DNA from: Bacteroidota bacterium
Lineage (GTDB): Bacteria; Bacteroidota; Bacteroidia; Flavobacteriales_D; JABDKJ01
Assembly: GCA_024279715.1 (NCBI GenBank)
Contig: JAJRRH010000106.1
Location: 17,102-81,101 of the forward strand
Direction of reading: 5' to 3'
DNA: 64,000 bases
The notes beneath the pieces were generated by a model. That model was not told the DNA's origin. It made no database searches and worked only from the letters and a program-made list of their open reading frames with translations. The translations under genes were made by a program, and so were the position numbers. How positions within the stretch are numbered: the first letter of the stretch is position 1; every line of letters starts with the position of its first letter. Positions 1,779 to 48,560 of the stretch are shown here, piece after piece.

Positions 1779-3347
1779 TTATCGTTCCACCATCATCTTT
1801 TCAGATCCTATCAAGACACCTTTCTTATCTCGGAGCTGTACGACATACAATCCATTGCTTAGTGATCCTATATTGATGGTCGATTGATTCAAGGTGTTCC
1901 GTGTCAAATACTCTCTCTTTGCTTCACTACCTGTTATGGTTATGATTCTAATTTCAGATGCTTCAATGTTTGTCTTCCACTGTAATTGTAACGCATCCGT
2001 AACCGGTTGTGGCCAAAGCGTCAGACCAATATTTGGCATATAGCTTTCGCCTACACTCAAAGGCTCACAGCCATCCCACTCCACATCTCCACAGCCATCT
2101 ATCTTTAATAGTCTTGATCTGGTATCTCCATTCCAAAGTTTTTGAATCAATCCTGCCATAGCATAGCCACCATCTGGAGTTGGCTCTATGTCATTAAAAT
2201 ATTGTATTACATAATAATCTAATCCTTCAGGGTCAGAATCATTCATCGGATATTCATAATACCACTCTTGATTTCCCTCAGTATCTATCTTCATCAACCA
2301 AGGAATAGCGGTATGGTTATAATCTACTATTGGAATGGCAGTACTGCCCAACACCAGCAAGCCACCATCGTGATGCTCTAATACTTTAATAATTCTTGCT
2401 GCATGTATCTCATGACTATTCAGATATTCTTGCTGTATCTCTATGGTGCCTATATTTCCATTGTCATTAACCGATGCCATGACAATATGACTCCAGTGTA
2501 CTGGATAATCAAAATCATAATAAAAATTCTCATATGGCTCTATATATAATATGAATATCTCACCATTACTCTTCTTTACCAGTTGAAAACTTCTATTGCC
2601 CCAGCCAAAATCCGATCCTTCAGTCTCAGCCTGCCACATAATATTTCCCTCAAAATCGACCTTATTAATTATTCCTTTGAGAGTATTGTCTTCAAAGTTA
2701 TCTGATAGATCCTGCCAATCTACTGCCATTAGATACCCATCTTCTACTTTTTCAAAAGAATGAGATCGTTGCCGATATCCATCTTCTTGATTAAGAACTT
2801 TTGTCCATAATATATCCCCCTCTAAATCCATCTCTAACATAAAGGTATATTCTTCATATTCATTAGCATACGGATAAACAAAACCAACTATTATTATGGT
2901 GTTTTCTTCTGTTATCATTAAATTATTAAACGCTGTGCTTCCATCATTAAAAATAGAATATATATTGCACCCTAATGTATCCAATGAATTATTGATATGT
3001 ACAACAAATGAATTGCCTTCAGAATAGTTATATCCAATAGCTATATATCCCTCATTGTTGGGAAGTTTTTGAAAGGTTTTTGCTGAAGGAGAAAGAACTT
3101 GAGCTAAAATAGGATATGGAATAGTATCTTCGTCTAAGGTATAGCCTTCAAAATCATATCTTCTAGCTTGTGCTCCTAGACTAAACACCTTGCTTCCATA
3201 AGCCACAATAGATTCATCCTCAACAATTATATTTGTATATGTTTCTTTTTCCGAATCTAGTCCTCCAATAGTATGTTCCCAATATATGTACTGCGCTGAG
3301 GTTACCTCAAACGCAGTACACATTAATAGTATTAATAAATAACGCAT
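1779..3347 (-). CDS. secreted hypothetical protein with T9SS type A C-terminal sorting domain
   Basis: Signal peptide MRYLLILLMCTAFEVTSAQ. C-terminal Por-secretion-tail pattern (LWPQPVTDALQL...GLYVVQLRD...KMMVER). Its ATG overlaps the stop of the upstream ORF (TAATG), which suggests translational coupling. Confidence 0.8.
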   Translation of the reverse strand: MRYLLILLMCTAFEVTSAQYIYWEHTIGGLDSEKETYTNIIVEDESIVAYGSKVFSLGAQARRYDFEGYTLDEDTIPYPILAQVLSPSAKTFQKLPNNEGYIAIGYNYSEGNSFVVHINNSLDTLGCNIYSIFNDGSTAFNNLMITEENTIIIVGFVYPYANEYEEYTFMLEMDLEGDILWTKVLNQEDGYRQRSHSFEKVEDGYLMAVDWQDLSDNFEDNTLKGIINKVDFEGNIMWQAETEGSDFGWGNRSFQLVKKSNGEIFILYIEPYENFYYDFDYPVHWSHIVMASVNDNGNIGTIEIQQEYLNSHEIHAARIIKVLEHHDGGLLVLGSTAIPIVDYNHTAIPWLMKIDTEGNQEWYYEYPMNDSDPEGLDYYVIQYFNDIEPTPDGGYAMAGLIQKLWNGDTRSRLLKIDGCGDVEWDGCEPLSVGESYMPNIGLTLWPQPVTDALQLQWKTNIEASEIRIITITGSEAKREYLTRNTLNQSTINIGSLSNGLYVVQLRDKKGVLIGSEKMMVER

Positions 3348-6043
3348 TATCTTGTTATTTGTAGTTTTTGTTTGACTAAAATATCTCCATCCTGATAAAC
3401 AGATACAATATATATCCCTTGCTTCAACGATCGTATATCTAATGGCCTTACATTATCTATAGGTTTAGTCAATACATTATTTCCAAGTACATCCATAAAA
3501 TGAATAGTTGCACTACTTGTAACATCAATGCCTTGCAATAAAACATAATCATGTGCTGGATTTGGATAAACTTGAATTAAAGTTTCATCAACATTTACCA
3601 ATAGATTATGTACATTGTTGGGAGAAAAAACTTTATCTGCTCGAGATTCAGGAATATATTCATCTAAGTCATATCCACTGTAACTAATCATCAATCCTAA
3701 AGCAAAACCAGCAGCATCATTACGTTCCTTACTACTTATATCCTCTAGCAATCCATACTGAGTGGCATCAAGATTTCTATCTGTACTAGAATACAATGTT
3801 TGAAGTATTTCATAGCACATAGTATAATCTTCATGTTCCTGTTCTTGTCTTTCATTTAATTCAAAATCAACTGCAACATTACTAATCCAACTATACACCT
3901 GCTCAAAATCGTTTCTACCTGCGTATAGCTTGGCTATCAAGTAATAATCCGATATACGCTCTATGCCATTAATGAATGACAATACATTCTCTATACCCGA
4001 GTCCGATACTTCAAGGTTGTCAAAATACTCATCCGCATCATCAACGGATGATTTTAATAAAAATGATATAGCGCTATTCATAGCTTTGTTATACTCCGAA
4101 TTATAATAAGAAATCGAAGACTCCATAGCCTCTTTTTGAGAGATCAATTGCTTTCCTTGGTCAATCATATAGCGCTGATACTCACTCAAAGAATTCATCC
4201 TTTCATCTAGTTTTTGTTGGATTTTGTCAGACTTCGAAGCAGTTGGATTAGATTTTAATATCATTGTTAACAAGACGCTAGGCAACGTTGATTCTTGATT
4301 TATAGCCTCCGTCATTACCTCGACAGAAAGTGATGGAGATTTAGCCATTAACTCGTAGTATAAGTCCAAGGCTTCAGAATAATCACTCAGCAATACTTCC
4401 ATTGTTAATGCTTCTGTATCACCGCCATCTACAAGATTATCCAATGCAATCTGTTCTTGATTCATCAATGATTTGAACTCCGTAGCCAATGCCAAACCCT
4501 CCTCCATATTCTCCTCCATCAAAATTACAGCTATTGCCTCTTCGGTATGACTCCCATCATCACCAATCATATTGGCTATTTTGCCTGGACAAGTCCAAGC
4601 TTGAATTAATGAGCCATTAGAAAAAATATTTCCATCTGCTTCAGTAAGATTATCACTTAAGTGATGAAAATACGTTAGGAAGCCAACATCATCATTAAAT
4701 ATATTGTATCCATTCGAGGGATCATTATCTGTATTGATAGAATAGAATCTATTAGCAACTGATGTATTAAACCCATTGCTATGTATTCCTTTTATCCCCA
4801 TTCCAAGGGGGTTGCTCCCTGTTTTTTCGATAAGGATATCGGCAAAGTTATGGTGTCTAAAAATATTACAACTAAGTTTTAATCCGCTAACTCCATTGTT
4901 ACTTCTATTATCATCCACTGCAGCTATTCCATTACTTGTGCATCCCTGAAAATCGTTATAACTAATCAAGTTGTTTGTAGGGCCCGAACTCAGGACAATA
5001 ATACCTGTATTATTGTTTATGACTCCAGTATATCGAAATATATTATATCTAACGATATAGTCTGTACAGTTGTGAAGATAAAATCCATAAACCTCTGGTT
5101 CATCAAATGCTACCAATACTTGTGGTTGAAAAATAGGTGGCAAATCACTAAATCTACATCCAATAACTTGATCTAACGTTTGCCCTTGAAAAAGAACCCC
5201 TCGAGCACATTTGAACAAAACATTACTTATTAAATTGACCCCGTTAGATGAACTATAAAAACCATACGTAAAACCAATAATATTTGAATAACCACTTGTC
5301 CCTTCTAACAGTATATTGGCGCTACTTCCCCTTACATAGATTGCACTCCTTTCTTCCTCCGATAAAGCGTAAAAAAAGTTTGGGTTCGTGTTTACAAAAT
5401 CACAATCTAAAATAATTACATCTTTATTATCGTTGTTCGAAAACATAGGTTTCAAACCGTTATTGTATGTAAAGTTAAATCCATAATCCCAAGTGAAATC
5501 TGTTCTATCGAATAAATGTCCGGTATCAGAACTATAAGTTGCGAGTTCAACAGCTTGATTACAGTTTTTGAATTCTGATAATACTGTTGTTATTACCCCC
5601 CCTGAGCTTAGTCCAGGAGAATTGGGAGAAAAATTTGTATCGTAATTACAAATACCAATTTCAGCGTTCTCTACCATCGTATTTTTCAAATGACATCGAC
5701 CTTGATTTGTTTGACTGTAAGGCAGCAAAGAATTTCCTCTAACTTGAACTCCTTTCCATTCTCCATCTGGATCACAAGAAGTTAATATGCATACTGAAAA
5801 AGTAATTCTAGCACCCGGATTTATAATAATCTTACTACTGGTGTTGAATCGTAATTCAGATGCATCAAGAGTTAGGATTACTCCTGGTTGAAAAATAATA
5901 TTGCCCCCAAAAGAAGATATACCTACAGATTCTACCATTGTTTCAAAGATATTCTGATTTGATGTAGTTACAGTGTAATTGTTTGGATAATCAAATGTTG
6001 TACATTGACCATATACCCCCTCAATATTGGTGACAAAAAACAT
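3347..6043 (-). CDS. parallel beta-helix repeat protein with T9SS type A C-terminal sorting domain; 5' end is set by the repeat tract at 6078..6122
   Basis: 898-aa ORF. PbH1-like repeats in the N-terminal half (NLISYNDFQGC, VRYNIFRYTG, SCNIFRHHNF), an acidic helical middle, and a C-terminal CTD (VYPNPAHDYVLL...GIYIVSVYQDG...KLQITR). ATG 6043 gives MFFVTNIEGVYGQC, which has no n-region. The hydrophobic signal core continues upstream in the same frame. Confidence 0.85.
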   Translation of the reverse strand: MFFVTNIEGVYGQCTTFDYPNNYTVTTSNQNIFETMVESVGISSFGGNIIFQPGVILTLDASELRFNTSSKIIINPGARITFSVCILTSCDPDGEWKGVQVRGNSLLPYSQTNQGRCHLKNTMVENAEIGICNYDTNFSPNSPGLSSGGVITTVLSEFKNCNQAVELATYSSDTGHLFDRTDFTWDYGFNFTYNNGLKPMFSNNDNKDVIILDCDFVNTNPNFFYALSEEERSAIYVRGSSANILLEGTSGYSNIIGFTYGFYSSSNGVNLISNVLFKCARGVLFQGQTLDQVIGCRFSDLPPIFQPQVLVAFDEPEVYGFYLHNCTDYIVRYNIFRYTGVINNNTGIIVLSSGPTNNLISYNDFQGCTSNGIAAVDDNRSNNGVSGLKLSCNIFRHHNFADILIEKTGSNPLGMGIKGIHSNGFNTSVANRFYSINTDNDPSNGYNIFNDDVGFLTYFHHLSDNLTEADGNIFSNGSLIQAWTCPGKIANMIGDDGSHTEEAIAVILMEENMEEGLALATEFKSLMNQEQIALDNLVDGGDTEALTMEVLLSDYSEALDLYYELMAKSPSLSVEVMTEAINQESTLPSVLLTMILKSNPTASKSDKIQQKLDERMNSLSEYQRYMIDQGKQLISQKEAMESSISYYNSEYNKAMNSAISFLLKSSVDDADEYFDNLEVSDSGIENVLSFINGIERISDYYLIAKLYAGRNDFEQVYSWISNVAVDFELNERQEQEHEDYTMCYEILQTLYSSTDRNLDATQYGLLEDISSKERNDAAGFALGLMISYSGYDLDEYIPESRADKVFSPNNVHNLLVNVDETLIQVYPNPAHDYVLLQGIDVTSSATIHFMDVLGNNVLTKPIDNVRPLDIRSLKQGIYIVSVYQDGDILVKQKLQITR

Positions 6044-6069
6044 AAAGAAAATTAAGAATCTTAAGCCTA

Positions 6070-6129
6070 CTAGTTTATGTGCGATTGTGCGATTGTGCGA
6101 TTGTGCGATTGTGCGATTGTGCTTCTCAT
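6070..6129 (-). other. upstream ATG plus a 19-codon out-of-frame leader ORF running through the octanucleotide repeats
   Basis: Minus strand reads ATG AGA AGC ACA ATC GCA CAA TCG CAC AAT CGC ACA ATC GCA CAA TCG CAC ATA AAC TAG. The ATG has an A-rich upstream context (aattaaaatcaaaATG) and lies 86 nt upstream of ATG 6043, so it is out of frame by 2. Confidence 0.6.
6078..6122 (-). repeat. octanucleotide tandem repeat, 5 full units plus a partial one (plus strand TGTGCGAT; coding strand CACAATCG)
   Basis: Read directly: tgtgcgat x5 followed by tgtgc. It lies between ATG 6129 and the signal-peptide core of the 898-aa ORF. Confidence 0.95.
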
Positions 6130-6195
6130 TTTGATTTTAATTGTGCCACCACAATAAAAGTAATTATGGTGGCTGGTTAGATTACTTGTTGTGTT

Positions 6196-6227
6196 CAAAT
6201 ATAGGTGTTATTATCCAAACTTTCAAA
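6196..6227 (-). promoter_or_regulatory. Bacteroidota sigma-A-type promoter (TTTG-N20-TATATTTG) for the cargo operon
   Basis: Minus strand has TTTG at 6227..6224 and TATATTTG at 6203..6196 with a 20-nt spacer. This matches the -33 TTTG / -7 TAnnTTTG consensus. It sits about 67 nt upstream of ATG 6129. Confidence 0.5.
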
Positions 6228-6356
6228 TTATCACATTAATATAACTCCAATAATTCCCCAATCTCAATATTTAGATTGTTTTGCAGAAAGCACGTAACCC
6301 GAAAAATTCATCGATTTTTAAACGGAAAAATAATACCAGCAAGTTTGGGGTTTTTC

Positions 6357-6378
6357 AAACACCCAAATTTGGGTGTTT
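6357..6378. repeat. 22-bp perfect palindrome AAACACCCAAATTTGGGTGTTT
   Basis: Read directly. A third related half-site, TTTGGGGTTTTT, lies at 6344..6355. The palindrome is upstream of the cargo-operon promoter, in the non-coding arm of the cassette. Confidence 0.9.
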
Positions 6379-6492
6379 CTAAATCGGGGTATCATGCTTG
6401 GCTCCCCACAATCCATCTCTCAGTTCTGCTGAGCTGGTCGAAGTATTCATTCAATACACTTCGTTTTTGTAGGTATAAAGAGAGTTAATGGC

Positions 6493-6695: not shown

Positions 6696-9104
6696 ATGTA
6701 CCATTTTACAAGAGTTAGTTTTCTTATTTTATTCACCCTTGTTTGGGGTAATTTCTATACCCAAACCATTCCAATAAGTCAAGGTGGCACTGTGGATGTC
6801 ACTTGTGGTGGCGCTCCAATTATCTTTACAGATAGTGATGCTAGTGGTGGTAATTACGCGGCTGGAGAAGATTATACTATCACCTTCTGTCCTGATGGTG
6901 GAAATGCCGTATTCTTCTTAATTGACGCAATGACTGCAGGTGATACTTGGGATGTTGGTGCTGGGGACTATATCACCATTTATGATGGCGACAATACTTC
7001 AGCCAATATTCTTGGAAGCATTAGTACAGCTACGGATGGGCCAGTAATGTATTATGCTGCAACTGTTGAAAATCCATCTGGGTGCTTGACGATACAATTT
7101 AATTCTTCTGCAACAAGTAGCGGTGGTGCAGGTTGGACCTCACAAATCAACTGCGGTAATCAATGGCAACCTTTTAGTATTGAATTAGAAACAAGCCCTA
7201 CTGCTATGGATGACCAAAACTATACGGACATCTGTCAAGGGGATTCTGTTCACTTTTCAGCCAATGGTATTTTCCCTTATTCTGATGGGTCTGGATATAA
7301 TCAAGACAATAATAACTGTTATTGGGAATGGGATCTTGGTGACGGAACGGAGCTTGAAGGATTTGGACTAACAGAGGTTGACAATTCCTACACCGATCAG
7401 TTCGGATATCCAATAAAAATAACGGTTACAGACACGCTAGGTTTGATTCAGATATTTGAATCCTCCGTAAGGGTTTCTACCACGCCGAGTTTTGCTGGTG
7501 TTGTGAGTCAACTTCAGGATAGTATATGTCTTGGTAGTACAGCTACACTTGTGGGAGGTATTGCTCAAAATAACCAAGCTACCTTTGGCGTGGGTTCTAT
7601 TCCATCCTCTTTTATCAGTGGTGGTTTTTTAGCAGGGCAGACCTTCCTGCCAGATGGATCTGGTGCTTCTTATGAAACTTCAATTATCATTGATGACTTT
7701 CCTGCTGGAACTGTTTTCGAAAATGAATCCGATATTGTTGCTATATGTGCTACTATAGAGCATTCATATCTTGGTGACCTTGATATTTCATTGACTTGTC
7801 CTGATGGATCAACTATTGACCTTGTTACCCAAACTGGTGGCTCCACCAACTTGGGTATTCCTTGGGCTACCGCACCAGTAGATGGTGAATCTGCCAACAA
7901 CACCCCCGGCGTAGGTTTTGAATACTGCTGGAGACCCGATGCGGACAATGGTACTTTTGCGGATGAAGCAGGTCAAAATAGTCAGGAGTTTATTAGCGGT
8001 GATGGCCCTGGCACCTATACCGATACACAAATGGCAGAAGGAAGTTACCTGCCGATACAACCTATCTCTGACCTCATCGGTTGCCCAATTAATGGTGAAT
8101 GGACAATAACTGTTACCGATAATCTTGGTGCAGATAATGGTTATATTTTCTCTTGGGGTGTTCAATTTAATCCATTGATTGATCCAAATGCGGAAACCTA
8201 TCAGCCAAATCTTATTGATGTATATTGGTTAGATGATGCGACCATCATTGCTGGAAACGATACCATCATCACAGTCCAACCAATAGAGACTGGTAATTTT
8301 CCATACACGTTATTGGTTTCGGATGATTTTGGCTGTGATTATGATACGACAGTTGTCGTCACTGTTGTAGAAGCTTCTTCTTCTAGTGCTGTAGATCCAG
8401 CCTGTGCCAATCAAACAGCCATTGAAGTCCTTAATTCTGCCTATGGTGGTACTTGGTCTTATGAAACGGATATTGAAGGCGGATTTGCGAGTTTTGATAC
8501 GGAACAAGCATTTGTGAACTTACCGGGGGTCTATACATTGATATATCACGACTTATTATGCCAAACCGATGATGTACATATTGTCAATTTTCTTCCCCAA
8601 CCATTTGTGGATCTACCAGACACGATGACTATTTGTGAAGAATTTCCAGAAATAATAACTGCTAATTCCGGAGATACTGGATTTGGTGACTTTGAGTACA
8701 CGTGGATATTCCAAGGGGATACGATGGTGCCAGGAAATCAAGTTTCTCAAGAAGTGCAAGAAGCTGGCGTTTACGCTATTAATGTTTACGATCCTATTTG
8801 TGATGTTAGTTTTACAGATATTATTGATATTTCTACTAAGCCTTGTGGTATAGAAACTTATAATGTATTTACTCCTAATGGCGATGGAGAGAATGACTTT
8901 TTCTACATTCAATCTATTCATGAAAATATCTATGATGGATCCGTCGTACAAGTGTATAACAGATGGGGGAATCTACTCTTCGAGGAAACTAATTATAAGA
9001 ATGATTGGAATATGGATGAGTTGAATGATGGTACGTATTACTTTGTGCTTAGTGTGAGTAATGGGGATACGCACAAAGGCTCATTTACTGTTCTACATGA
9101 ATAG
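6696..9104 (+). CDS. T9SS type B (gliding-motility-associated) CTD protein with a proprotein-convertase P-domain-like module
   Basis: Signal peptide MYHFTRVSFLILFTLVWGNFYTQ. P-domain-like stretch HSYLGDLDISLTCPDGSTIDLV...GEWTITVTDN. C-terminal type B CTD YNVFTPNGDGENDFF...VYNRWGNLLFE...GTYYFVLSV. Confidence 0.85.
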   Translation: MYHFTRVSFLILFTLVWGNFYTQTIPISQGGTVDVTCGGAPIIFTDSDASGGNYAAGEDYTITFCPDGGNAVFFLIDAMTAGDTWDVGAGDYITIYDGDNTSANILGSISTATDGPVMYYAATVENPSGCLTIQFNSSATSSGGAGWTSQINCGNQWQPFSIELETSPTAMDDQNYTDICQGDSVHFSANGIFPYSDGSGYNQDNNNCYWEWDLGDGTELEGFGLTEVDNSYTDQFGYPIKITVTDTLGLIQIFESSVRVSTTPSFAGVVSQLQDSICLGSTATLVGGIAQNNQATFGVGSIPSSFISGGFLAGQTFLPDGSGASYETSIIIDDFPAGTVFENESDIVAICATIEHSYLGDLDISLTCPDGSTIDLVTQTGGSTNLGIPWATAPVDGESANNTPGVGFEYCWRPDADNGTFADEAGQNSQEFISGDGPGTYTDTQMAEGSYLPIQPISDLIGCPINGEWTITVTDNLGADNGYIFSWGVQFNPLIDPNAETYQPNLIDVYWLDDATIIAGNDTIITVQPIETGNFPYTLLVSDDFGCDYDTTVVVTVVEASSSSAVDPACANQTAIEVLNSAYGGTWSYETDIEGGFASFDTEQAFVNLPGVYTLIYHDLLCQTDDVHIVNFLPQPFVDLPDTMTICEEFPEIITANSGDTGFGDFEYTWIFQGDTMVPGNQVSQEVQEAGVYAINVYDPICDVSFTDIIDISTKPCGIETYNVFTPNGDGENDFFYIQSIHENIYDGSVVQVYNRWGNLLFEETNYKNDWNMDELNDGTYYFVLSVSNGDTHKGSFTVLHE

Positions 9105-17532: not shown

Positions 17533-18855
17533 TTGGAACCTCCGGAACCCATTATCAATCTTTTTCCCTTTTTAATAACCCAAATAATTGGTGTGGAGTC
17601 GTGGATTTTTGCAATTGTTTTGGTTGTATTATTAATTATGTCAGCCCTAGTTTCAGGGTCTGAAGTTGCCTATTTCTCTATCTCTCCAAAACAATTAGAC
17701 ACTCTGAATAACTCTAGTAGTAATTCGGATAAATTAGTTTTGGACTTACTTTCTAAACCTGAGAAGCTTTTGGCTACCATTCTTGTGGCAAACAATTTTA
17801 TCAATATTGCTATTGTAGCTGTTTCCACCCAAATGCTTCACGGTATGCTAGGTGGTTTTAGCGATGTGATGAAATTAATTATTGAATTGGGTGTCGTTAC
17901 TTCATTTTTGTTGCTTTTTGGTGAGGTTTTACCCAAAATATATGCGAGCTCTTCCAATATACAAGTATCTAAATGGATGGCAACACCACTTGTATGGATT
18001 TCCAAACTTTTTTATCCAATCATAGCCCTATTGTTATCAAGCAAGCTGATCACCAATAAATTAGTAAAGAAAAAGTCTAATGATATTAGTGTAGATGAAT
18101 TAGGTCATGCCATGGAGTTGACGATGCAAAATGCGGATGAGGAGGAACAGAAAATACTTGAAGGTATAATAAATTTTGGGAACATCAATGTCAAGCAAAT
18201 CATGACTCCCAGAACGTCAACTGTTGCTTTTAAAATCGATATGTCATTTGATATTTTATTAGATGAGTTTGTAAAGTCAGGACATTCTAGAATCCCAATT
18301 TACAAAGAGTCTTTTGACGATATTGAAGGTATCTTATATCTTAAAGATCTGATCCCGCACATAGAAATGAAAAATTTAGCTTGGCAAGATTTGATCCGTG
18401 ATGCTTTTTTTGTGCCTGAAAATAAGATGATTGATGACTTGCTTAAAGATTTTCAAGTACGGAAAATGCACCTTGCGATAGTTGTGGATGAATATGGTGG
18501 CACTTCAGGTATTGTCACTTTGGAAGACGTGATTGAAGAGATAGTTGGTGAAATTACCGATGAATTTGATGAGGAGGATATAAATTATTCCAAACTTGAT
18601 GATAATACCTTTATCTTTGAGGGTACTACGCCCCTTGTTGATTTGTACCGAGTAATGGATTTTGATGGTGAGGATTTTGAAAAGTCAAAAGGTGAAGCGG
18701 ATACCATTGCTGGTTTTGTTGTAGAATTGGCTGAAAAGATTCCTCTCAAAAATGAAAGAATTAAATTCAATGAATTTGTATTTACTATCGAGGCTGCTGA
18801 TAAAAGAAGAGTTAAACAAATAAAAATAAGTCGAAATGTTCAAGGCCAAGACTAA
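17533..18855 (+). CDS. gldE: gliding motility-associated protein GldE (CNNM/DUF21 + CBS pair + CorC/HlyC domain)
   Basis: N-terminal DUF21 TM domain, two CBS domains and a CorC_HlyC C-terminus. The ssb-gldE-gldD order matches Flavobacterium johnsoniae. The track start is TTG, so the exact start is uncertain. Confidence 0.8.
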   Translation: MEPPEPIINLFPFLITQIIGVESWIFAIVLVVLLIMSALVSGSEVAYFSISPKQLDTLNNSSSNSDKLVLDLLSKPEKLLATILVANNFINIAIVAVSTQMLHGMLGGFSDVMKLIIELGVVTSFLLLFGEVLPKIYASSSNIQVSKWMATPLVWISKLFYPIIALLLSSKLITNKLVKKKSNDISVDELGHAMELTMQNADEEEQKILEGIINFGNINVKQIMTPRTSTVAFKIDMSFDILLDEFVKSGHSRIPIYKESFDDIEGILYLKDLIPHIEMKNLAWQDLIRDAFFVPENKMIDDLLKDFQVRKMHLAIVVDEYGGTSGIVTLEDVIEEIVGEITDEFDEEDINYSKLDDNTFIFEGTTPLVDLYRVMDFDGEDFEKSKGEADTIAGFVVELAEKIPLKNERIKFNEFVFTIEAADKRRVKQIKISRNVQGQD

Positions 18856-19435
18856 AATATTGTTTTTCCTGTTTGCTTTCTTAGTGGTTTCCTGTGATGA
18901 CCCAACTATCCCAAAGCCGGTTGGATTTATGCGTATTGAGCTAGAAGAACCAACGTATACTACTTATACTATGAGTAGTATTCTTTCTTTTGATTTATCC
19001 AATCAGGCCGTTATTGAGGAGTTGAGCCAAAACAACACTAGTATACTCTTCAATATATCTTATCCGAAACAAAAAGCTAAGATACATCTAGCGTATAACT
19101 CGATAAATGACAACCTACGTACTTACCTTGAAGAGACAAGGAAACTGACGTACCAACATCATGCAAAAGCAACTAATATTAATAAAAAAAAGGTGTTAAT
19201 GCCTGAAAGTAAGGTTTATGGAATGAAGTATAACCTCACAGGAGAGGTTGCTTCGGCTTCACAGTTCTACCTCACAGACAGTACCCACCACTTTTTCAGA
19301 GGAGCACTATATTTTTGGGCTAAACCCAATGAAGACTCCTTAGCACCTGTACTTTCTTATATTAATCGAGATATAGAACGTCTTATTGAAAGTTTTTCAT
19401 GGGAACCCCAACTAATTGACTCTGTTTCTCAATAA
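18836..19435 (+). CDS. gldD: gliding motility lipoprotein GldD
   Basis: Lipoprotein signal LFFLFAFLVVSC. Size is about 190 aa. It follows gldE directly and overlaps it by 20 bp. Confidence 0.7.
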   Translation: MFKAKTKILFFLFAFLVVSCDDPTIPKPVGFMRIELEEPTYTTYTMSSILSFDLSNQAVIEELSQNNTSILFNISYPKQKAKIHLAYNSINDNLRTYLEETRKLTYQHHAKATNINKKKVLMPESKVYGMKYNLTGEVASASQFYLTDSTHHFFRGALYFWAKPNEDSLAPVLSYINRDIERLIESFSWEPQLIDSVSQ

Positions 19436-37383: not shown

Positions 37384-38283
37384 TTACCTGTTTTTGCGAT
37401 CAAAACGGATTCCGACTAAAACTTCATGAGTAGCACCAGCATATGGCTGTAAATCAGTCATGGTAAAATCATGGGCATATCCGAACACAATATTATCATT
37501 CCAGTTGTAACCGAGCATGATATTAATTGCGTCATTACTCCGCCATCCACCACCAAATATTAGTCGCTTTTGATACTCTAGTTTTACATTTGCATCCACT
37601 TTAACGGGTACAGGGCTTACGTATTTAACAAGTACTGAAGGTTCAATACTAATATCACTATTGATATCAATTTTGTATCCTGTATTCATGTAGACGTGAT
37701 TTTCTAAAAAACTATTAGATTCTACTATGTCTTCATATACCTTTAATTTATTATGTGCAATCTGCGGTGCTGATAGACCAAAATAAAACTTGTCAGAGTA
37801 GAGATACAATCCAAATTTACCATCGAAAACAACTTTCGAGGACAAGGAGCTTTGGATAAATAAATCATTGTTATCCTCTAATTCAATTTTGTGACCATCT
37901 ATAGCAAACTGCATAATTCCAGCGGATAAGGCCATTGAAAGTTTTAAATTCTCGTTCAATTGAAATTGATATCCATAAGAACCTTGAATTCCTATTCTCC
38001 TAGTGGGTCCAACGATATCGGTATAAAGATACATTCCTATACCTGACCTATCATTCTCTAATTGACTTTGGAAACTTAATGTGTAAGTCCTTGGAGCATC
38101 CACTATACCTTCCCATTGATATCTATTAACTGAATTAATTTGGACTTTATCCATAGTGCCAGCTACTGCCGGGTTAATAGAATAAGCGTTAAACATGTAC
38201 TGTGTTACTTGCGGTAATTGTTGACCAACCACAATATTTGTAATCATCAAGAGCAAAACGATATGTGCGATTCTTTTTATCAT
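37384..38283 (-). CDS. PorP/SprF family T9SS outer-membrane protein
   Basis: Signal peptide followed by the family N-terminal signature QQLPQVTQYMFNAYSINPAVAG. Beta-barrel-like, 299 aa. Overlaps the stop of the giant adhesin gene by 4 nt. Confidence 0.85.
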   Translation of the reverse strand: MIKRIAHIVLLLMITNIVVGQQLPQVTQYMFNAYSINPAVAGTMDKVQINSVNRYQWEGIVDAPRTYTLSFQSQLENDRSGIGMYLYTDIVGPTRRIGIQGSYGYQFQLNENLKLSMALSAGIMQFAIDGHKIELEDNNDLFIQSSLSSKVVFDGKFGLYLYSDKFYFGLSAPQIAHNKLKVYEDIVESNSFLENHVYMNTGYKIDINSDISIEPSVLVKYVSPVPVKVDANVKLEYQKRLIFGGGWRSNDAINIMLGYNWNDNIVFGYAHDFTMTDLQPYAGATHEVLVGIRFDRKNR

Positions 38284-41200
38284 CTGAAAATGGTTAATGG
38301 CCCTGTAAATGGTTTTGGGAATAATGGATCATGGAGTCTGATAACATAATAATATGTTCCTACTGGTACGTGCTTACCTTCATATTTTCCATCCCAAGGG
38401 ATATATGTTCCTTTGGATTCGTATAATTTATCTCCCCATCGATTGTAAATATTAGCTTCCATTTCTGGGAATTTATCCGAATTAGCAATATTCCAAACAT
38501 CATTGACTCCATCGTCATTTGGGCTAAATCCATCTGGAATAACCACTTGATTGACTAGCGTTATGAGAATGCTATCACGCATCATACATCCGTTACCATC
38601 CGTTACGGTAACAATAAACTCCTGCGTTCCCACATTAAAATATTCAGGATTAGCAATAGAAGAATCATTCAATAATAACCCTGGTTCCCAATGATATGCC
38701 ACGGCTGTAGGACCTGTAGGGTCACCTCCTAATTCAACAATGTCTTCAGGGAAAACATCTTGATCAACCCCAGCATCTACAAGCGGCAAGGGGTTGACTA
38801 ATAGGGTTAGTGTATCACTATGCGAACACACATTATTAGATACAGTAAGTATGAATTCATTATAAGTAAAACCTAAGGTTATATCAACTGTTGGGCCTGT
38901 TCCTATCTGTTGACTTTGGTTATCCTCCCATGAATAACTATCTGCTCCTATGGATTGTCCTCCACTTAGTGTTACTGGCAGTTGGTCACACGCTGGTTCT
39001 TGATTGTCAATAATAGCGATAACCTCTTGATCATAACCTACTTCAACTGTTTCAAGATAATTACATTGATTGGCATCCGTAACTGTTAAGCTATATGTGC
39101 CGCTCACAATACCCGTAAGATCGTCCCCTGAAAATTCATCATTTTGGTCATTTGTCCAAGTGAGTATATACCCTGGACTACCACCGGTAATAGTTGTGTA
39201 TAGACTTCCATCCTCACTTGTGTAACAAAATGCATTTACTGTACTATCCACCACAACGATAATTGCTGAAGGTTCTGTGATTTCAAAATCATAAATATTC
39301 ACACAGTTATGGCTATCGGTAATTTCTACTGAATAAAAACCAGCTTCTAGTTCGTCAGCATCTTCCTGGTCTTCAAAGAAACCAGGTACATTAGAGGTCC
39401 AATTATATTCGTAAGGTGATGTTCCTCCCATAGTTTCCTGATCTATCATTCCTGAGTTATTTCCAAAACACATTAAGTCAGTAACAATACTACTAGCATA
39501 TAATGAGTCTGGATTTAGTATTGAAAGGGTATCTCTTTTTATACAACCACTAATTTGATCTGTTAGTAAGAGATAATAGTCCCCCCCTAAAAGATTAGAA
39601 ATATCTTCGGTAACTATATTATTAACATTTCCATCGGATTGGGCATTCCAAATGAAGTCAAATTGTTCAGAACCTCCTGTGGCGGTAAGATCAATTGCTC
39701 CATCACCGACATTATAACATGAAATACTATCCACAGTATACTGTAATTCGATGATAACACTAGCGGTGATAGAAAAGGTAGTATCAATTGCACAACTTTT
39801 TGCATCTGTAAAATTCAATGTATAACTTCCTACTGTTAAATTTTCAATAGAAGAGGTTTCTCCACCTGTACTCCAATCATAATTATATTCGGTTGTTCCA
39901 CCACTTACAAAAACCTCAATAGATCCATCGGTATCTGATTCACAAACTATATCTTGAATGCTAGCTACAAGAACTAATGGTTCTGGCTCTGTAATATCAA
40001 TATCTACATTAGTAGTACAAGTGTTGGCATCCACAACTTGAATAGAATAGTTTCCTGCCCCAATATTTTCAGAAAAATGGATGTTCCCAGGGTCTATTTC
40101 TCCAACGGGTACATTCCAATTGTAATTATAATTTTGTCCTTCCGTCAATGGTGTACCACCAGTTGGCGATAATACTATTGATCCAGATCCATCATTATTA
40201 CAGTTGAGATTAATTTCAACCACATTTATTATAAGACTATCGGGTTGTGTTATCTCATACGTTTGTTCATACGGACAACCTGTTGCATCAGAAAGAAATA
40301 AGGTGTATTCTCCTGCCACCAAATTAGATATGGTTGTGTTAGAAGGTATATTATCCATTTGCGAGCTCGTCCATGACAAATTCATAATAGGCATGGTGAA
40401 GTCATCTGATAATTCAATACTTATTTCTCCTGTTGCATTTCCATAACACAAAATATCTGTAATCGTACTTGTCACAGTATAATCTTCATTTTGAATTAAA
40501 AAATCTAGCGTTGAAGTACAATCGCTACCATCAGAAACGACCACATAATAAGAACCTTGAACTAGAAATCCTATTTCATTTCCTGTTTCTGTTAATAAGA
40601 AATTATCACTTGTATACCATTCATAAGAATAACCACCTTCTCCACCAGTAGCGGTAACGGTAGCAGTACCTGTTGGTAATTCACAACTCGATGTGGTAGT
40701 AGTAATATCTATAAAAATCTCTCCATTTTCATTGACCATAAAACTGTCAGAAAGTGTACAATCATTGTCATCTGTAATAAGTACATTATAGGTGCCTGCT
40801 TGAATATTATCTATACTCTGAAAACTTGAATTATAATCGGGATTTTCATCTTGAGTCCATGAGAATGAGTATGGTGTTGTACCGCCATCCACATTGACCA
40901 AATTTACCTCTCCATCATTCAGACCGAAGCATGAAACATCTATGATTTGCTCTACTAAACTTAGAGGGTCTGGTTCTATAACTTCAAAAGAATTGGTTCC
41001 CCAACATAATGCTTGATCGGAGATAATCACTGTGTAAATTCCTACTTCAAGTGAAGATAGATCACCATTTACATCTGGCGTGACATCCCCGTTAGGGCCT
41101 GTCCAGGATATATTATATTCAGGTTCACCACCAGTAATTGTAATATCAATAGCACCATCACTAAGACCATTGCAGGATACATTAGTAATATTGGCAAAAC

Positions 41201-44200
41201 TTGTGATGAATTCTTTCTCTTCCACGGTGATGATATCCCCTAAAATACATCCATCCATTGCGGTAATTAGAACAGTATAATCACCGAGAATAAGATTTGA
41301 AATATCTTCATCCGTTGGGTTATAGTTGCCTTCAGGGCCAGACCATATAATACCTACTGGCTCGGTCATTCCACCATAAGTAATATCTATAGCACCATCA
41401 TTTAAGCCTGGACAAGATACATTTGTAACCTCATAATCCAATACTCCTCCCACATCTGATAGAACAAAATCTTGAGATACTGAACAATTCAAATCATCTG
41501 TTGCTATTAATTGATAAACACCTGCTGAAATATTATCGATTATATTGTCATTATCATTGATGGCTTCCCCACTACCATGTAACCAAGTGTAGGTATAATC
41601 TCCTGCGACCATCCCGCCTGAGATAGAGGCTGAAGCACTACCATTTGACAATAAACAAGTAGAACTTGTGGTAATAACATCAATTTCTATGATTGGGGAT
41701 TCAGAAACAATAAAAGTCTCCTCATGAATACAGCCGTTTGGCGTAGTAACTACCACTGAGTATTCTCCCGCGATTAAGTTAAATTGGTTCTGAGCGTTTT
41801 GATCTACATTGTTTCCAAGCCAATTAAAACTCATGTTTTCAATAGGTGTATTACTTCCAAAATCTAAATCTAAAATGATAGATCCATCATTAGACCCAAA
41901 ACAGGTCACATTACTAATAGATTCCACAATTTCAAAATCAACTGCAGGAGCTACGATATAATTCTCAATTATTTCACAATTATTATCATCTGTAACAGAG
42001 ACAGTATACACATTAGGAGCTAAATTGTCCTGATCCTGATTCTGAGGGTTAATAATGTTCATTCCTGACCAGTTATACTGGTAGATTCCTGTTCCACCCA
42101 ACACAGACAGATTAATCATTCCATCTTCTGCAGAAGGACATGTTTCATTAAAAATGGTTGCACTAAGTTCGAGTTCATCAGGATCGGAAAGATCGTATGA
42201 TTCTATCAATTCACATCCATTATTATCAGTCACTAATATGGTATAAGTACCGCCATCCAATCCAGTAATTGAGGAGTCTGAACTAGTGAAATTATTATCA
42301 CTTGTCCATTGGTAAGATATAGGGTTAGTCATTCCATTTGCTGTGACAACTATTGCACCGTTCATATCTCCAAAGCAAAGGAGGGATTGCACCATAGCGG
42401 TAAGATTACCAACATCATCTGACAACGTGAATTGCTGATTGGCTGAACAATTATTTTCGTCAGTAATTTCAACCATGTATAGACCAGGACTTAAACCATC
42501 GATACTAGAACCTGTTCCGATAGCAGTATTAGTATTAAACCAATTAATTGAATATTCTGGGATTCCTCCTAATATTTCATTGACCTCAGCGTGACCATTC
42601 TCTAGTCCACAAGTAGAGTTGTTTGCATCAAGATTAAATGTTAATTCTGCGGGTTCATTAATGGTAAATGTTTGCTCAATACTACACGAATTTACATCTT
42701 CAATATGAACGGTATAATCACCACCATTGAGACCATTAACATCTTGTGTGGTTTCAAAAACTCCATTTCCATCAGTCCACGTATATTCATATAAAGGTGT
42801 GCCACCCTCAATTTGAATATCTATAGATCCTGTTCCATCTTGATAACATTGATTATGCGATATAGATATAACATCCAATGTTAATAGATTTGATTCCGTT
42901 ACGACAAACGAAGTATCCTTTGAACAGCCTAATTCATCGGTGATACTGAGAGTATAGGTGTTAGCAGATAAATCTGTTGGATCTTCAATAGTAGGATCAG
43001 TAATGGATTCTCCTGACCATGAAATATTAAATGGTTGAACGCCACCAGAAATATCAATATCAATTGATCCACTACTATCTCCAGCACAATCAACACCATC
43101 AATTAGAGCAAAAACTGAAATTTCTGTGTTTTCATTATCTATTGAATATTCTTTACTAATAATACAACCGCTTTCATCTTCTAATGTAAGAGTATAATCA
43201 CCTGCAGGTATATTCATTAGATTACCATTTTCTACTGTAGCACCATTGGGAATTGGAGACCATGTGGGTGTTATTGTCCCTTGTCCACCTGATAGTGATT
43301 CGATAACTAAAGATCCTGTCGCATCACCATAACAAGCTACATTATTAACTGCAACTTCGGCTTCTATCAACAAATTCTCTGTGACAGACAATAACGTATC
43401 GAAAGAACAATTAAGATCATCCTCTATGTTTAGAATATATTCACCAACACCTAAGTTAAAAATATCTTGATCATTTGAGTTATACCCAACAGAAGACCAA
43501 TTAAAACTATAATTACCCGAACCACCAAGGTTAATGAGCTCAATACTTCCAGTTTCTTCATTATTACAATCGATGTTAGTAATAATTGCATCACCAAATA
43601 AGGGTGTATTTGATCCTATAACGAATGTTGAATCTGCTTGACAATTATTTTCATCTGAAATCATAACGGTGTATGATCCTGCCACAATATTCTGAATATC
43701 CTGCTGGTCTGACCCACCAGTCCATAGGTATGAATAAGATGGAGTACCTCCTGATACATCAATATCAATTTCGCCACTATCATCGCCAAAACATGCCACA
43801 TCTATTACATCCGCAGTAATGGTTAATTCCACAACAGATTCTATAACATAATCATTAGTAATTGTACAAGATGCCACATCAGAAACTGTTAATTGATAAG
43901 TCCCTGGCGGTAAATCAAATATTGATGAGGCTTCAAAATCATCATGTATATCACTGTTCCAAATATAAGTATAACCCCCTGTACCTCCAATTGTCTCGGT
44001 AAGTTCAATAGATCCGTTAGTGTCTGACGCACAGAATACACTATTAACATCTGCCGCCACAATTATTTCATCGTTTTCCAATACCTCAAAAGACATAACA
44101 GCCTCACAATTATTATCATCATTTACTGTCACAATGTAGTCTCCGGCAATAAGTTCTGAAACTACTGTAGAATTAGGGTTGTTAATGACACCATCACCAA

Positions 44201-47200
44201 TCCAACTAATATTAGGCGTACCCGTTGCGCCATCAATTGTAATAGTTATGGATCCAGTATTTCCACCAAAACAAGCAACATCCATAACATTACCACTAAT
44301 TGTAATATCAGAATTTGACAATGTGACTGTTTCAGTAGTAGTACAGTTATTTGAATCTTCGGCTGTAATAACATAAACACCTGTACCTAAATTACTAATA
44401 TCATTTACAATAACACCGGCTTTCATAACTACCACAGTGGTAATACCCACGCCACCAATAGTGTTAATTGTTAAACTTCCGTTGTCACTCCCACAAATTG
44501 GTTGTATAATATTAATTGTCAACTCTATAGGGTTAGGCTCATTAATTGTGAATAGATCACTTGATATACATCCATTTATATCCTGAATTGTTAGGTTATA
44601 GTCGCCTTGGGCTAAATTGCTTATATTCTGTTGCTCACTGAAAAATAAATCCGGACCTGTCCAAGAAAATGTATAAGGTTCTTCTCCACCTGTAGGATTG
44701 GTTATTATAGTACCGTTCTCCTCCCCAAAACAATTTATATCATTAAAAATAGAATTTATATCAATCATGGCACTCGGCGTCATGACAAAATCTTCTTGGT
44801 AAGTACATCCGAGAAAATCAGTAACTACTACAGAATATATCCCTCCTGAAAGGTCTGTTTGGTCTTGGTTTTCATTATCGGGAGCAGTAATTCCATCTCC
44901 TGTCCACAAATAGGTGTATGGCGCAGTACCTCCATGTGGGGTGATATCTATAGATCCAAGCACACTACCATTACACGGATAGGGCGTAAGGACGACTTCA
45001 AGATATAAAGAATCGTTTTCTAACACGGTAAATGATTGGGTTGCAATACATCCATTGAGATCCACTGTCACATCATAATCACCGGCAAAAAGATTAGAAA
45101 CATCTTCAGTATTAGCATTAAAGTTAGATCCAGTCCAAGAGTATATCGGCGTAGTTATCGCTCCATTCACGGTAATGTCAATTTCACCAGTGTTAGTGTT
45201 ATAACAAGTAATATCTGTGACATCCCCAACAATATCTAACACTTCTGGCTCATTCAATACCACTGTACCACTATTTGTACATCCGCTTTGATTGGTGACT
45301 TCAACGATATAAGTACCTTCACATAGGTTGGCGATATCTTCAGAAGTAGCACCATCAAAACATGCTGGCCCAGTCCAAATATATCCAAAGGTCGATCCAC
45401 TACCAGTAACACTAAGGTCTATGGCGCCATCTTCATAGCCACTGCATGATATTTGATTTACATCAAAATCTAAGACTATCTCTGGATCTTCGTTAATAAT
45501 AAATGTCTTGGTAGAAACACAATCGCCACTAGTGACCACTACCGTATAAACACCTGCACTTAGTCCGCTAACATCTTGCGTGTTATTTGGGCTTGGTGCT
45601 TCTGGTGTTCCAATCCAAGTATAACTAAATGTTCCATCTCCACCCACAACGTCAATATCAATAACACCGTTACTAGCACCAAAACATAAAGCTGGTACAA
45701 ATGTATTGGAGATTATTATTATTTCTTCCGGGGCATTAATAGTATAAGTTTGTTCAAAAATACAATCTTGATTATCTAAAACAGAAAGCGTGTAATCCCC
45801 TGCGTCAAGATTGATAATAGATGTGCTATTACCAATAATATCACCATCCTCATTTGTCCAAGTTAATTCATATTCCGCAACACCTCCAGTAATATCGACA
45901 ATAATAGAACCATCGCCTTGCATACAGGATGCATCGATTACATTCTCAGTGACCACTATTTCCCCATTTTCCAATATTTCCATAGATTCAGAAGCTACAC
46001 AATTATTATCATCCGTATAGACTACGGTATATGTATTCGGTGTCAAATTACCAATACCATTACCAATAACATCAAATGGCATAGGGCTCCATACTGGTGT
46101 TGTTGGCGGTTGTGCTCCCCCAGATATCACAAGATCAATGCTTCCATCATTGGCACCAAAACAGCTTATATCAGTTTTGGTTAAATCCAACATTATAGCA
46201 TCGGGTTCATCCACTACAAATGTTGCAGAATTGCTACAGTTATTGATATCAAAAACTGTGATTTCATAAACTCCTCCACAAAGATTCGTTAAATTTTGAA
46301 TATCTAATGGGCCATTGTAACACGAGGGACTTTCCCAAGAAATAGTATTGTAGGGTGGATTTCCACTTGTAATATCAGTAACTATCGAACCGTCATTATC
46401 TCCATTACAATTAATACTAGTTATTACTGCGGTAATAAGAATTGAATCTGGTTCTTCGATAATATAATCCGCATCCAAAGTACAACCCAAAGAATCGGTT
46501 ACTATCAAATTGAAATCTCCAGCAGGTAGATTAATTTGAGTTTCGGAATTAGTAATAGTGTTTGGGCCACTCCAGTTGTAGGAATAAGGGGATATTCCTC
46601 CGCTAATATTGGGACTTATTCCACCATTATTATCTCCAAAACAAGTAATGCCAGCTATGGACGAACTAGATAATATTTCGGGAGATTCTTCAATTACGTA
46701 ATCTTTCGTAGTAGTACATGGACTAGCATCGGTAACCACAACTGTATAAGTACCAGCTCCTAGGTTACTAATGTTTTGACTTGTTGAAAACTGACCACCC
46801 CCGTTGAGACTCCATGAGTAGGTATATCCAATACCCGGAATCGGATTTCCACCAGACACATCAATATCTATAAAACCAGTGGTTTCATTAAAGCACGTGT
46901 TTTGGATGGTTGAATCTACTACTATTTCAATGGCAGCGGTAGGATCAAAAAATGTTGTATCCGTTATACAACCATCTCCATCCATGATGGTAAGATTGAA
47001 TGGATTACCTAGGTTATTATTTAATGGTTCATTCACAAATGGACCATTGTTATAACTGAAAGTAAAATCTCCTGCACTTCCAACTACGAAAGGATTGGCA
47101 CCTCCGTCAAGAATACCAAAACAAGAGGGAGGATTAAAATTCCATTCGACCACAACAATGGCAGAAGGTTCTCCCACTTCCACCTCGGTGAAATCCAAAT

Positions 47201-47558: not shown

Positions 47559-47618
47559 AGTTGAATAGTGATTGAATTTTATAATACGAGTTTTTTATAT
47601 AAAGGTTATTAAATAATT

Positions 47619-48560
47619 TTATCTGTACGCTGAGCATGGGATTTTACCGGAATAAAACTTTCCTGAACAAGCATTGATATTGAGTGATATTTCATGAGTG
47701 TTGGCACTTGCCAATCGTATTGGTGATAATGTATAATCATAAGAATAACCTACTGTAAAATGATTTAAGAATTTGAATTGAAACAATGCAGATATGGCGT
47801 CGCCATTTCGTAGAGAAACGCCTCCTGCAACTGCCTGATTGTAATCAATCATTAAATTTACGTTCACTGAAGGAATAGAGCCTGGCTCATAATATATCAT
47901 TGCACTAGGAATCATCAATGTATTCGCTCCTACTTCATAAGCCTTTCCAGAGGTTAAGAAAATATGTTGAACTAATCGAGCCTCCTTACCAATACTCCTT
48001 AATTTATTTACAGTAATAGACTTAACGGATAGTCCGAAATAAAAACGACTGTTATACAGCCAAAATCCTGGGGTAAATTCTGGTAGAATCAGTACTCTAT
48101 TCGACTGTGAATTTAATACGGGATCTAAATCTACATCTGGAATATTAAGTGAAGAACTATCAAATTTGTATTGCGCAAAACCAGCAAAAATTCCAAATGA
48201 AGCTCTTAAATCTCGTCGCCACCTAAAATGATAAGCATAAGCTAAATTGAAATTAGTACGTGTAAAAGGGGTGGTTTGGTCTGTTTCAATCACTCCACCA
48301 ATACCATGTGTTCTTTTTTTTGTTCCCTTTCCAAATTTAGAATTGGCGGCAAACACACCTGTTCTAGGAGCTCCCCTAAAGCCCACCCATTGTGTTCTAT
48401 AGGCAAAATTTATATCCAAACACTCTTTGAATCCAGCCAAAGCCGGGTTTATTACAAATTGATTAAATTTATAACTTGTGTATTGGGGTAGCTGTTGACT
48501 ATCCGCCTTATAAGAGACAAACAGAAATACAATTATCAAATATGTAATTATCTTTTTCAT
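47619..48560 (-). CDS. PorP/SprF family T9SS outer-membrane protein (second paralogue)
   Basis: Signature QQLPQYTSYKFNQFVINPALAG. 313 aa. Its start overlaps the stop of the upstream type B cargo gene by 1 nt. Confidence 0.85.
   Translation of the reverse strand: MKKIITYLIIVFLFVSYKADSQQLPQYTSYKFNQFVINPALAGFKECLDINFAYRTQWVGFRGAPRTGVFAANSKFGKGTKKRTHGIGGVIETDQTTPFTRTNFNLAYAYHFRWRRDLRASFGIFAGFAQYKFDSSSLNIPDVDLDPVLNSQSNRVLILPEFTPGFWLYNSRFYFGLSVKSITVNKLRSIGKEARLVQHIFLTSGKAYEVGANTLMIPSAMIYYEPGSIPSVNVNLMIDYNQAVAGGVSLRNGDAISALFQFKFLNHFTVGYSYDYTLSPIRLASANTHEISLNINACSGKFYSGKIPCSAYR

Follow-up and report, generated by a model that had tools for sequence, protein, structure and literature searches.

A candidate slipped-strand switch in the signal-peptide region of a type IX secretion cargo gene of a marine member of the Flavobacteriales

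How is a protein exported when it ends in a type IX secretion system (T9SS) sorting domain and its annotated reading frame begins without a signal peptide? The question is raised by a locus on contig JAJRRH010000106.1 of the Bacteroidota assembly GCA_024279715.1, of which a stretch of 64,000 nt (contig positions 17,102 to 81,101, numbered here from its first letter and called the window) was analysed. T9SS cargo must first cross the inner membrane by Sec. On the minus strand of the window, a perfect 8-nt tandem repeat lies between an ATG at 6129 and an open reading frame (ORF) of 898 codons that is annotated from a second ATG, at 6043. We rate at somewhat better than even the chance that this locus is a slipped-strand ON/OFF switch of the opa type, placed in a T9SS cargo gene and OFF as sequenced. 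The coordinates of its features are listed in Table 1.

The repeat was read from the sequence and also located with Tandem Repeats Finder. After ATG 6129..6127 (minus strand) come AGAAG, then CACAATCG five times over (6121..6082), then CACA as an incomplete unit. In Tandem Repeats Finder the tract had a period of 8, 5.6 copies, 100% matches and no indels, and its score of 90 was the highest in the 64-kb window. Matches to a two-unit 16-mer probe (at most two mismatches) were confined to the tract, and the probe was matched in 0 of 100 dinucleotide-preserving shuffles. A scan of the window for perfect repeats (unit 2-12 nt, three or more copies, total length 14 nt or more) returned the tract alone. 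From the repeat score, the shuffle null and this uniqueness, the tract is therefore real and far beyond chance. The GC content at the locus was ordinary for the window. In the reconstructed ORF described below, the tract covers codons 3-17, which places in the 5' part of the coding sequence a perfect repeat with a unit length indivisible by 3. Repeats that are enriched at N-termini are recognised as a sign of phase variation (PMC3315296). In an in-silico screen for phase-variable genes, tetra- to octanucleotide repeats inside ORFs were accepted from 3 units upwards (PMC7383803), a threshold that the 5.6 copies present here pass.

Read from ATG 6129, the sequence as assembled encodes MRSTIAQSHNRTIAQSHIN and then stops at a TAG. 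The frame of the 898-aa ORF is open back to 6136 and holds no ATG, GTG or TTG before 6043, which in the ORF list is the first such codon after the upstream stop. Translated in that frame, the DNA before the methionine of 6043 reads ..NRTIAHKLVGLRFLIFF. The offset between the two ATGs is 86 nt (86 mod 3 = 2), and the assembled allele, with its five units, is in an OFF frame. The public annotation also starts at 6043, with a protein (P0001) that is identical to the 898-aa ORF and begins MFFVTNIEG. Alleles with 0-12 units were rebuilt in silico. Fused ORFs of 916, 924, 932 and 940 aa were obtained with 1, 4, 7 and 10 units, respectively, and all other unit numbers in this range gave a peptide of 4-36 aa, so that a change in unit number switches between a full-length and a truncated product. 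One of the OFF frames stops 3 codons past the tract, and the other (n = 3, 6, 9) at a TAA directly after it. Since the unit of 8 nt is not a multiple of 3, only 1, 4, 7 or 10 units join the start to the hydrophobic core. No sense frame of the CACAATCG unit contains a stop codon (in the simulation, more units gave longer peptides), and a tract of any length can thus be read through if its phase is right.

The two start codons were compared by their contexts. Shine-Dalgarno sequences are not used in the Bacteroidia. In Flavobacterium johnsoniae, A at -3, -6, -12 and -13 favours initiation, and U at -3 is a negative determinant (PMC6847099). ATG 6129 has A at all four of these positions; at ATG 6043 the corresponding letters are T (-3, -6 and -12) and C (-13). 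For 21 genes of the window that start with ATG, the 20 upstream nt were used to build a position weight matrix; the mean score of these starts was +0.65 (leave-one-out), compared with -3.37 for all 2426 ATGs of the window. ATG 6129 scored +1.42 (93.5th percentile of all window ATGs) and ATG 6043 scored -3.79 (43rd percentile). As the training set was small, these scores are supportive rather than decisive. In the predicted mRNA fold, the ATG 6129 codon and the tract are unstructured. Four independent lines, namely start context, signal peptide, homology and export route, favour ATG 6129, which is likely the true start codon of the cargo gene; ATG 6043 likely is not.

Signal-peptide calls were made from heuristic hydropathy scores. 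The annotated N-terminus has just 12 residues before the predicted cleavage site (VYG↓QC, the arrow marking cleavage), and its best 9-residue hydropathy is 1.16, compared with 2.7-3.4 for other exported proteins of the window. With four units, the N-terminus reads MRSTIAQSHNRTIAHKLVGLR-FLIFFMFFV-TNIEGVYG↓QC and scores 3.16, with the repeat placed after the initiator ATG and before the hydrophobic core. On these scores, a Sec signal peptide is lacking in the annotated 898-aa ORF and present in the reconstructed 1-, 4- and 7-unit forms. According to the Q-rule of the Bacteroidetes, Q stands directly after the signal peptidase I site (PMC5837995). In six other exported proteins of the window, Q likewise follows the predicted cleavage position (TSA↓Q, YT↓Q, GFA↓Q, YS↓Q, DS↓Q and AKA↓Q), and VYG↓Q is the predicted site in the present protein. 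The extension that lacks a start codon is homologous to a signal peptide. A homologue of the same length and 37% identity (P0015) has a signal peptide of 43 residues with a long basic n-region, and in BLASTP its h-region, KFLKTLMLLLFV.., aligned with RFLIFFMFFV.. of the extension, followed by a conserved DYPN just past the cleavage site. Standard signal peptides were found in 12 of the 14 complete homologues of similar length (16 were listed, of which two are N-terminally truncated).

These results agree with a first-pass annotation of the DNA as far as the core of the locus is concerned. The tract and its frames were found where that annotation had placed them on the minus strand, and in the simulation the frame was restored, as it had claimed, by the loss of one unit (the 924-aa fusion with 4 units) or the gain of two (932 aa with 7 units). 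Its description of ATG 6129 as the only good start, out of frame with an ORF that lacks a signal peptide, is borne out by the start contexts and the simulation. It had also held that the annotated N-terminus is unfit as a Sec signal, which fits the short distance to the cleavage site, the low hydropathy and the missing h-region, and that the in-frame reconstruction makes a full n/h/c signal peptide, in line with the hydropathy of the 4-unit form and the P0015 alignment.

Table 1. Positions of the features of the candidate switch locus and its surroundings in the window
Feature	Position	Strand	Basis or remark
Promoter-like site: TTTG (-33), 20-nt spacer, TATATTTG (-7; consensus TAnnTTTG)	6196..6227	-	sequence reading
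11-bp stem-loop (GCCACCAUAAU..AUUGUGGUGGC), presumed 5' untranslated region	6145..6173	-	inverted repeat; minimum free energy and centroid folds
ATG, likely true start of the cargo gene	6127..6129	-	A-rich context, context score, unpaired in predicted fold
Perfect octanucleotide repeat, 5 x CACAATCG plus partial unit	6078..6122	-	part of signal-peptide n-region; sets reading frame
TAG ending the 19-codon peptide from ATG 6129 (5-unit state)	6070..6072	-	sequence reading and simulation
In-frame extension without start codon, AHKLVGLRFLIFF	6044..6081	-	end of n-region and first half of h-region
Predicted signal peptidase I site, G12↓Q13 of the annotated protein (VYG↓QC)	6005..6010	-	inferred from Q-rule
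898-aa ORF (P0001): beta-helix, helical and T9SS C-terminal domains	3347..6043	-	ORF list, AlphaFold, Foldseek
T9SS type A C-terminal sorting domain, residues 825-894	3362..3571	-	PF18962 4.6e-9, TIGR04183 5.5e-8
522-aa T9SS cargo gene with its own signal peptide (..TSA↓QY)	1779..3347	-	ATG overlaps upstream stop, TAATG 3349..3345
Gliding/T9SS-rich regions	6696-9104; 37384-49639; 18836-19435	+; -; +	

If the locus works as a switch, translation would be initiated at ATG 6129 and the n-region of the signal peptide would be read through the 8-nt repeat. The right number of units would join this start to the core ..LRFLIFFMFFV.., the VYG↓Q site and a mature protein of 886 residues. On the 5-unit allele, ribosomes would make the 19-residue peptide and stop at TAG 6072, and no exportable cargo would result (OFF). 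Slipped-strand mispairing at replication, with a change of -1 or +2 units, would give the 924-aa or the 932-aa precursor (ON). We infer that the length of the tract changes at a useful rate and that the switching is adaptive. The 2.7-kb ORF is intact and its predicted fold is confident, so any inactivation is recent or reversible. A fuller version of the proposal is more tentative and in our estimate falls a little short of even: the locus would be a contingency locus of a free-living marine flavobacterium, in which the repeat stochastically gates Sec entry, and hence T9SS export, of a beta-helix surface protein that binds or degrades polysaccharide. A second cargo would perhaps be affected through polarity, and the n-region would vary among 12, 20 or 28 residues in the ON states.

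The nature of the cargo was examined by domain searches and structure prediction. The claim that the 898-aa protein ends in a T9SS C-terminal domain was confirmed by its matches to PF18962 and TIGR04183 and by structural matches. The same type A domain is carried by the 522-aa ORF (PF18962, 1.3e-8; TIGR04183), and both families were above their curated cut-offs in both ORFs. An AlphaFold model of the 898-aa protein was built with 30 family members (mean predicted local distance difference test score 75, predicted template modelling score 0.72). The model is beta-rich at residues ~20-480 and helical at ~500-800, with a beta-sandwich at 823-896. When compared with the PDB by Foldseek, the beta-rich domain gave weak matches to right-handed beta-helix polysaccharide enzymes and phage tailspikes (for example AlgG at 7e-5, polygalacturonases, and the HK620 and Sf6 tailspikes), and the beta-sandwich matched the solved T9SS C-terminal domains of NucA, mirolase and PorZ. 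A search of the PDB by sequence with the cargo protein gave no match. At the level of the fold, these matches suggest that the cargo probably binds or modifies polysaccharide and is either secreted or attached to the cell surface.

The 522-aa gene lies directly downstream. No TAnnTTTG occurs on the minus strand between 3347 and 4520, which makes co-transcription of the two cargo genes likely. The first-pass annotation had both genes switching together; the TAATG overlap on which this was based is present, but the 522-aa gene has a good, A-rich start context of its own and, by the heuristic score, its own Sec signal peptide, so co-switching would be at best partial and dependent on polarity. 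The OFF state may lower expression of the 522-aa gene through lost translational coupling or polarity, and probably would not abolish it, because the gene has its own good start context. The exact 522-aa product was missing from a collection of ~15 billion proteins, in which 11 of 11 other tested proteins of the contig were present; the gene may have been given another start, or been treated otherwise, in the public annotation.

T9SS and gliding genes in the window include GldD, two PorP/SprF proteins, a SprB-like adhesin of 3092 aa and two CHU_C-type cargo proteins, and from these genes the organism has a T9SS. A CHU_C cargo protein with P_proprotein and PKD domains is encoded divergently from the switch locus. 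The longest G/C runs in the window are of 7 nt. Two C7 runs (+ strand) are found at 5596-5602, within the 898-aa ORF, and at 39581-39587, within the SprB-like ORF; in this genome of 36% GC they are the next most slippage-prone sites of the window, and both ORFs that carry them are uninterrupted.

Upstream of ATG 6129, the TTTG-N20-TATATTTG arrangement claimed by the first-pass annotation as a promoter is present at 6227..6196, but the pattern is not above chance: the full -33/-7 pattern occurs 4 times in the window (2.6 expected) and the -7 box alone 97 times (81 expected), neither being enriched over shuffles. On its sequence, a Bacteroidota-type promoter at this site is plausible. The 11-bp stem-loop that follows ends 15 nt upstream of ATG 6129 and has no U-run after it. 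A perfect inverted copy of its 10-nt arm GCCACCACAA is found at 6803-6812, inside the divergent cargo gene. No Rfam family (riboswitch or other known RNA element) matched the upstream and tract region. Farther upstream, a near-perfect palindrome of 16 nt (TTTTCAAACACCCAAA / TTTGGGTGTTTCTAAA, 6352-6383; no Rfam match) sits in the unusually long intergenic region of 650 nt between the divergent T9SS cargo genes. A perfect inverted repeat of 11 nt (GTTTGGATAAT / ATTATCCAAAC, 5981-5991 / 6210-6220) encloses the -7 box together with the tract and the start of the gene, and is probably due to chance. An invertible promoter of the Bacteroides type was considered and rejected: the best flanking pair is of 11 nt, too short for a known inverton, and its inversion would invert the gene start too. 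Of the 36 ORFs of the window with 150 aa or more, 32 were scanned, and none of these showed a recombinase domain.

Relatives of the cargo gene were searched for. An exhaustive HMMER search gave a cargo family of 2051 proteins. The closest homologue, P0014 from NCBI, is encoded outside the window on a contig of 9,878 bp, has 902 aa and is 43% identical; as annotated it lacks a signal peptide and begins ~25 residues past the position of the cleavage site. Apart from the 898-aa protein itself, a word-indexed protein search returned only two relatives, of 22-23% identity. Each of ten other proteins, either housekeeping or neighbouring, was likewise a singleton when clustered at 90% identity. For MnmG, the closest proteins share 78-83% identity; the single one that bears a name (80%) comes from a metagenome-assembled genome (MAG) of Ulvibacter sp., and identity to MnmG of other Flavobacteriaceae is ~70-72%. 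By these comparisons the lineage belongs to marine Flavobacteriales without a sequenced close relative, and since the cargo protein is also a singleton, there is no orthologous locus or second allele for comparison. A genome collection was also scanned with a 20-mer covering 2.5 repeat units; 28 unrelated loci were returned, and the source genome was not among them. A Bacteroidota match (L020) has 2.5 units inside a membrane-protein ORF and is not comparable. Another locus, in a Saprospiraceae MAG (L026 270-385, CALCMJ010000023.1), carries a graded 8-nt array directly after the stop codon of a gene, with units CCCTCAGT, CACTCAGT, CACTCAAT and CACAATCG in ~3 copies each. It too is not comparable, and it shows that microsatellite-like arrays of 8 nt occur elsewhere in Bacteroidota in a different context.

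Several observations weigh against a switch. The locus is known from one genome, its protein forms a cluster of one at 90% identity, and a collection of ~15 billion proteins contained no ON allele; scans of metagenome contigs by protein and with a locus-specific 23-mer found nothing, and look-ups of exact products (the 898-aa protein, the neighbouring 802-aa protein, P0014 and P0015) returned nothing on record. The N-termini of 149 family members were free of period-8 peptide repeats, and the repeat is therefore particular to this locus. No second repeat-bearing gene was found in the 64-kb window, which thus does not hold the several loci of a phasome; the tract is isolated, with no repertoire of contingency loci to be seen around it. 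With five copies of its 8-mer the tract is short, and the promoter is without statistical support. Some of these points are what would be expected of an incipient pseudogene, the main and serious rival, in which a neutral tract in a tolerant part of the signal peptide suffered a recent slip of +1 (or -2) units that killed a dispensable, fast-evolving cargo gene; a return to the ON frame would be physically possible, with no selection for a switch. The gene is an orphan in a fast-diverging family (best homologue 43% identity), other repeat-bearing loci are absent from the 64 kb, the repeat is absent from the wider protein family, and no ON allele is on record. We nevertheless hold this explanation to be unlikely, at roughly half the weight given to a switch. 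The 898-codon ORF is fully intact in a genome of 36% GC and has a confident predicted fold, and the tract is perfect over all 45 nt. Stepwise growth from 1 to 5 units would also have passed through OFF states (2 and 3) and then an ON state (4) with the gene kept, which fits repeated switching better; this argument is weak, because slippage is much faster than the decay of an ORF, and none of the points against a pseudogene is decisive.

The remaining explanations are all improbable, to different degrees. The sequenced allele might be an effect of consensus or assembly, if the population were mixed or had mostly 4 or 7 units and the assembler had fixed a 5-unit minority or miscounted the allele. 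The assembly, whose contig at this locus has 94,673 bp, is a draft of a lineage without close relatives, perhaps therefore a MAG, and repeat tracts are where population heterogeneity collapses to one consensus. A tract of 45 nt is shorter than a typical short read, however, and sequencing errors do not typically take the form of whole 8-nt units, so that we give this account little credence; a mixed population would itself be evidence for phase variation, and the account partly merges with that of a switch. Slightly less probable still is expression of the gene as it stands, either from a non-canonical in-frame start or by re-initiation at ATG 6043 after a regulatory upstream ORF of 19 codons. 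In-frame ATC and ATT codons are present in the extension, and an initiating ATC within the tract would lead to (M)AHKLVGLRFLIFFMFFVTNIEGVYG↓Q, which could work as a signal peptide; the upstream ORF ends 24 nt before ATG 6043. The frame has no ATG, GTG or TTG, and initiation at AUC or AUU in bacteria reaches ~1% or less of the AUG level. Re-initiation would have to use an unfavourable context, with U at -3 and -6, and its product could not reach the T9SS because it lacks an h-region; the 19-residue peptide has no known leader-peptide features. Programmed -1 ribosomal frameshifting, by which the frame of ATG 6129 would be fused to that of the ORF, has one point in its favour, the offset of 86 mod 3 = 2 being equal to a -1 shift. 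As a frameshift site the region was rejected, and we regard this mechanism as very improbable: no slippery heptamer of the form X XXY YYZ precedes TAG 6072 (..CAC ATA AAC TAG), no stable structure lies downstream (the fold z-score of -1.9 is driven by the hairpin in the 5' untranslated region), and no Rfam frameshift element was matched.

A slipped-strand switch at this locus, if real, would give the Bacteroidota a second and much simpler mechanism of phase variation, in an environmental rather than a host-adapted organism. As far as the searchable literature shows, it would be the first repeat-based phase variation in the phylum and the first switch to act on a T9SS cargo. Such a switch would point to bet-hedging, in defence against phage or grazers or in the use of polysaccharide niches, beyond host-associated pathogens. 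The public annotation gives the truncated P0001 (MFFVTNIEG..) without a signal peptide, and such genes are misread by secretome predictions and in pseudogene counts. The combination of a T9SS sorting domain, a missing signal peptide and an upstream repeat tract offers a cheap screen for further genes of this kind.

The proposed switch was compared with known systems of phase variation. For Bacteroides, phase variation is described as invertase-driven only, for example at capsule and SusC/D loci (2025 review, PMC11868660), and in Bacteroides fragilis slipped-strand mispairing was raised merely as a possibility for a C-run (PMC3090145). No example of repeat-based phase variation in Bacteroidota was found in the searchable literature, which is incomplete, so that this is absence of evidence only; the statement of the first-pass annotation that such a switch would be unusual for the phylum agrees with that literature. 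As with promoter inversion in Bacteroides, the outcome would be stochastic ON/OFF expression of surface or secreted functions, but no long inverted repeats surround the promoter here.

Repeats with long units are known from other phyla. In E. coli K1, neuO, which encodes a prophage-derived cytoplasmic O-acetyltransferase, carries heptanucleotide repeats in its 5' coding region and undergoes translational ON/OFF switching. The present tract likewise has a long unit that is not a multiple of 3 at the 5' end of an ORF, but it involves a signal peptide and neuO has none. Octanucleotide GCATCATC repeats in 12-15 copies are found in the putative promoter region of hmw1A/hmw2A in Haemophilus influenzae biogroup aegyptius (PMC3309571). 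These share the 8-nt unit, at a phase-variable adhesin locus, and differ in position, since the tract here is coding and shifts the reading frame. The nanH3 sialidase of Gardnerella has a poly-C tract just after the signal-peptide region, with length heterogeneity shown by clone sequencing (bioRxiv 10.1101/2020.09.16.300947). In some Gardnerella genomes, as here, a secreted protein is annotated without a signal peptide because a repeat frameshift parts the true start from the ORF, and for nanH3 the switch was confirmed by experiment; the repeat is a homopolymer after the signal peptide in nanH3 and an 8-mer inside it here.

The closest parallel is opa of Neisseria. The opa genes form a multigene family, unlike the single locus described here. 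Their CTCTT repeats lie in the region coding for the signal peptide, and the genes are ON only at every third repeat number (bioRxiv 10.1101/2020.09.16.300947). In both systems an exported surface protein has, between its start codon and the remainder of its signal peptide, a repeat whose unit is not a multiple of 3. The unit is of 8 nt here and 5 nt in opa, and five copies are present here compared with typically 4-12 or more. Export would be by Sec and the T9SS in a member of the Flavobacteriales, whereas the opa product is an outer-membrane beta-barrel protein, and switching at the present locus is a proposal. The first-pass annotation had recognised the layout of a contingency locus, and the layout is indeed that of the classic opa design. 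The mechanism is a textbook one and not new; the value of the case lies in its taxonomic and functional range, the phylum and the T9SS target both being unusual.

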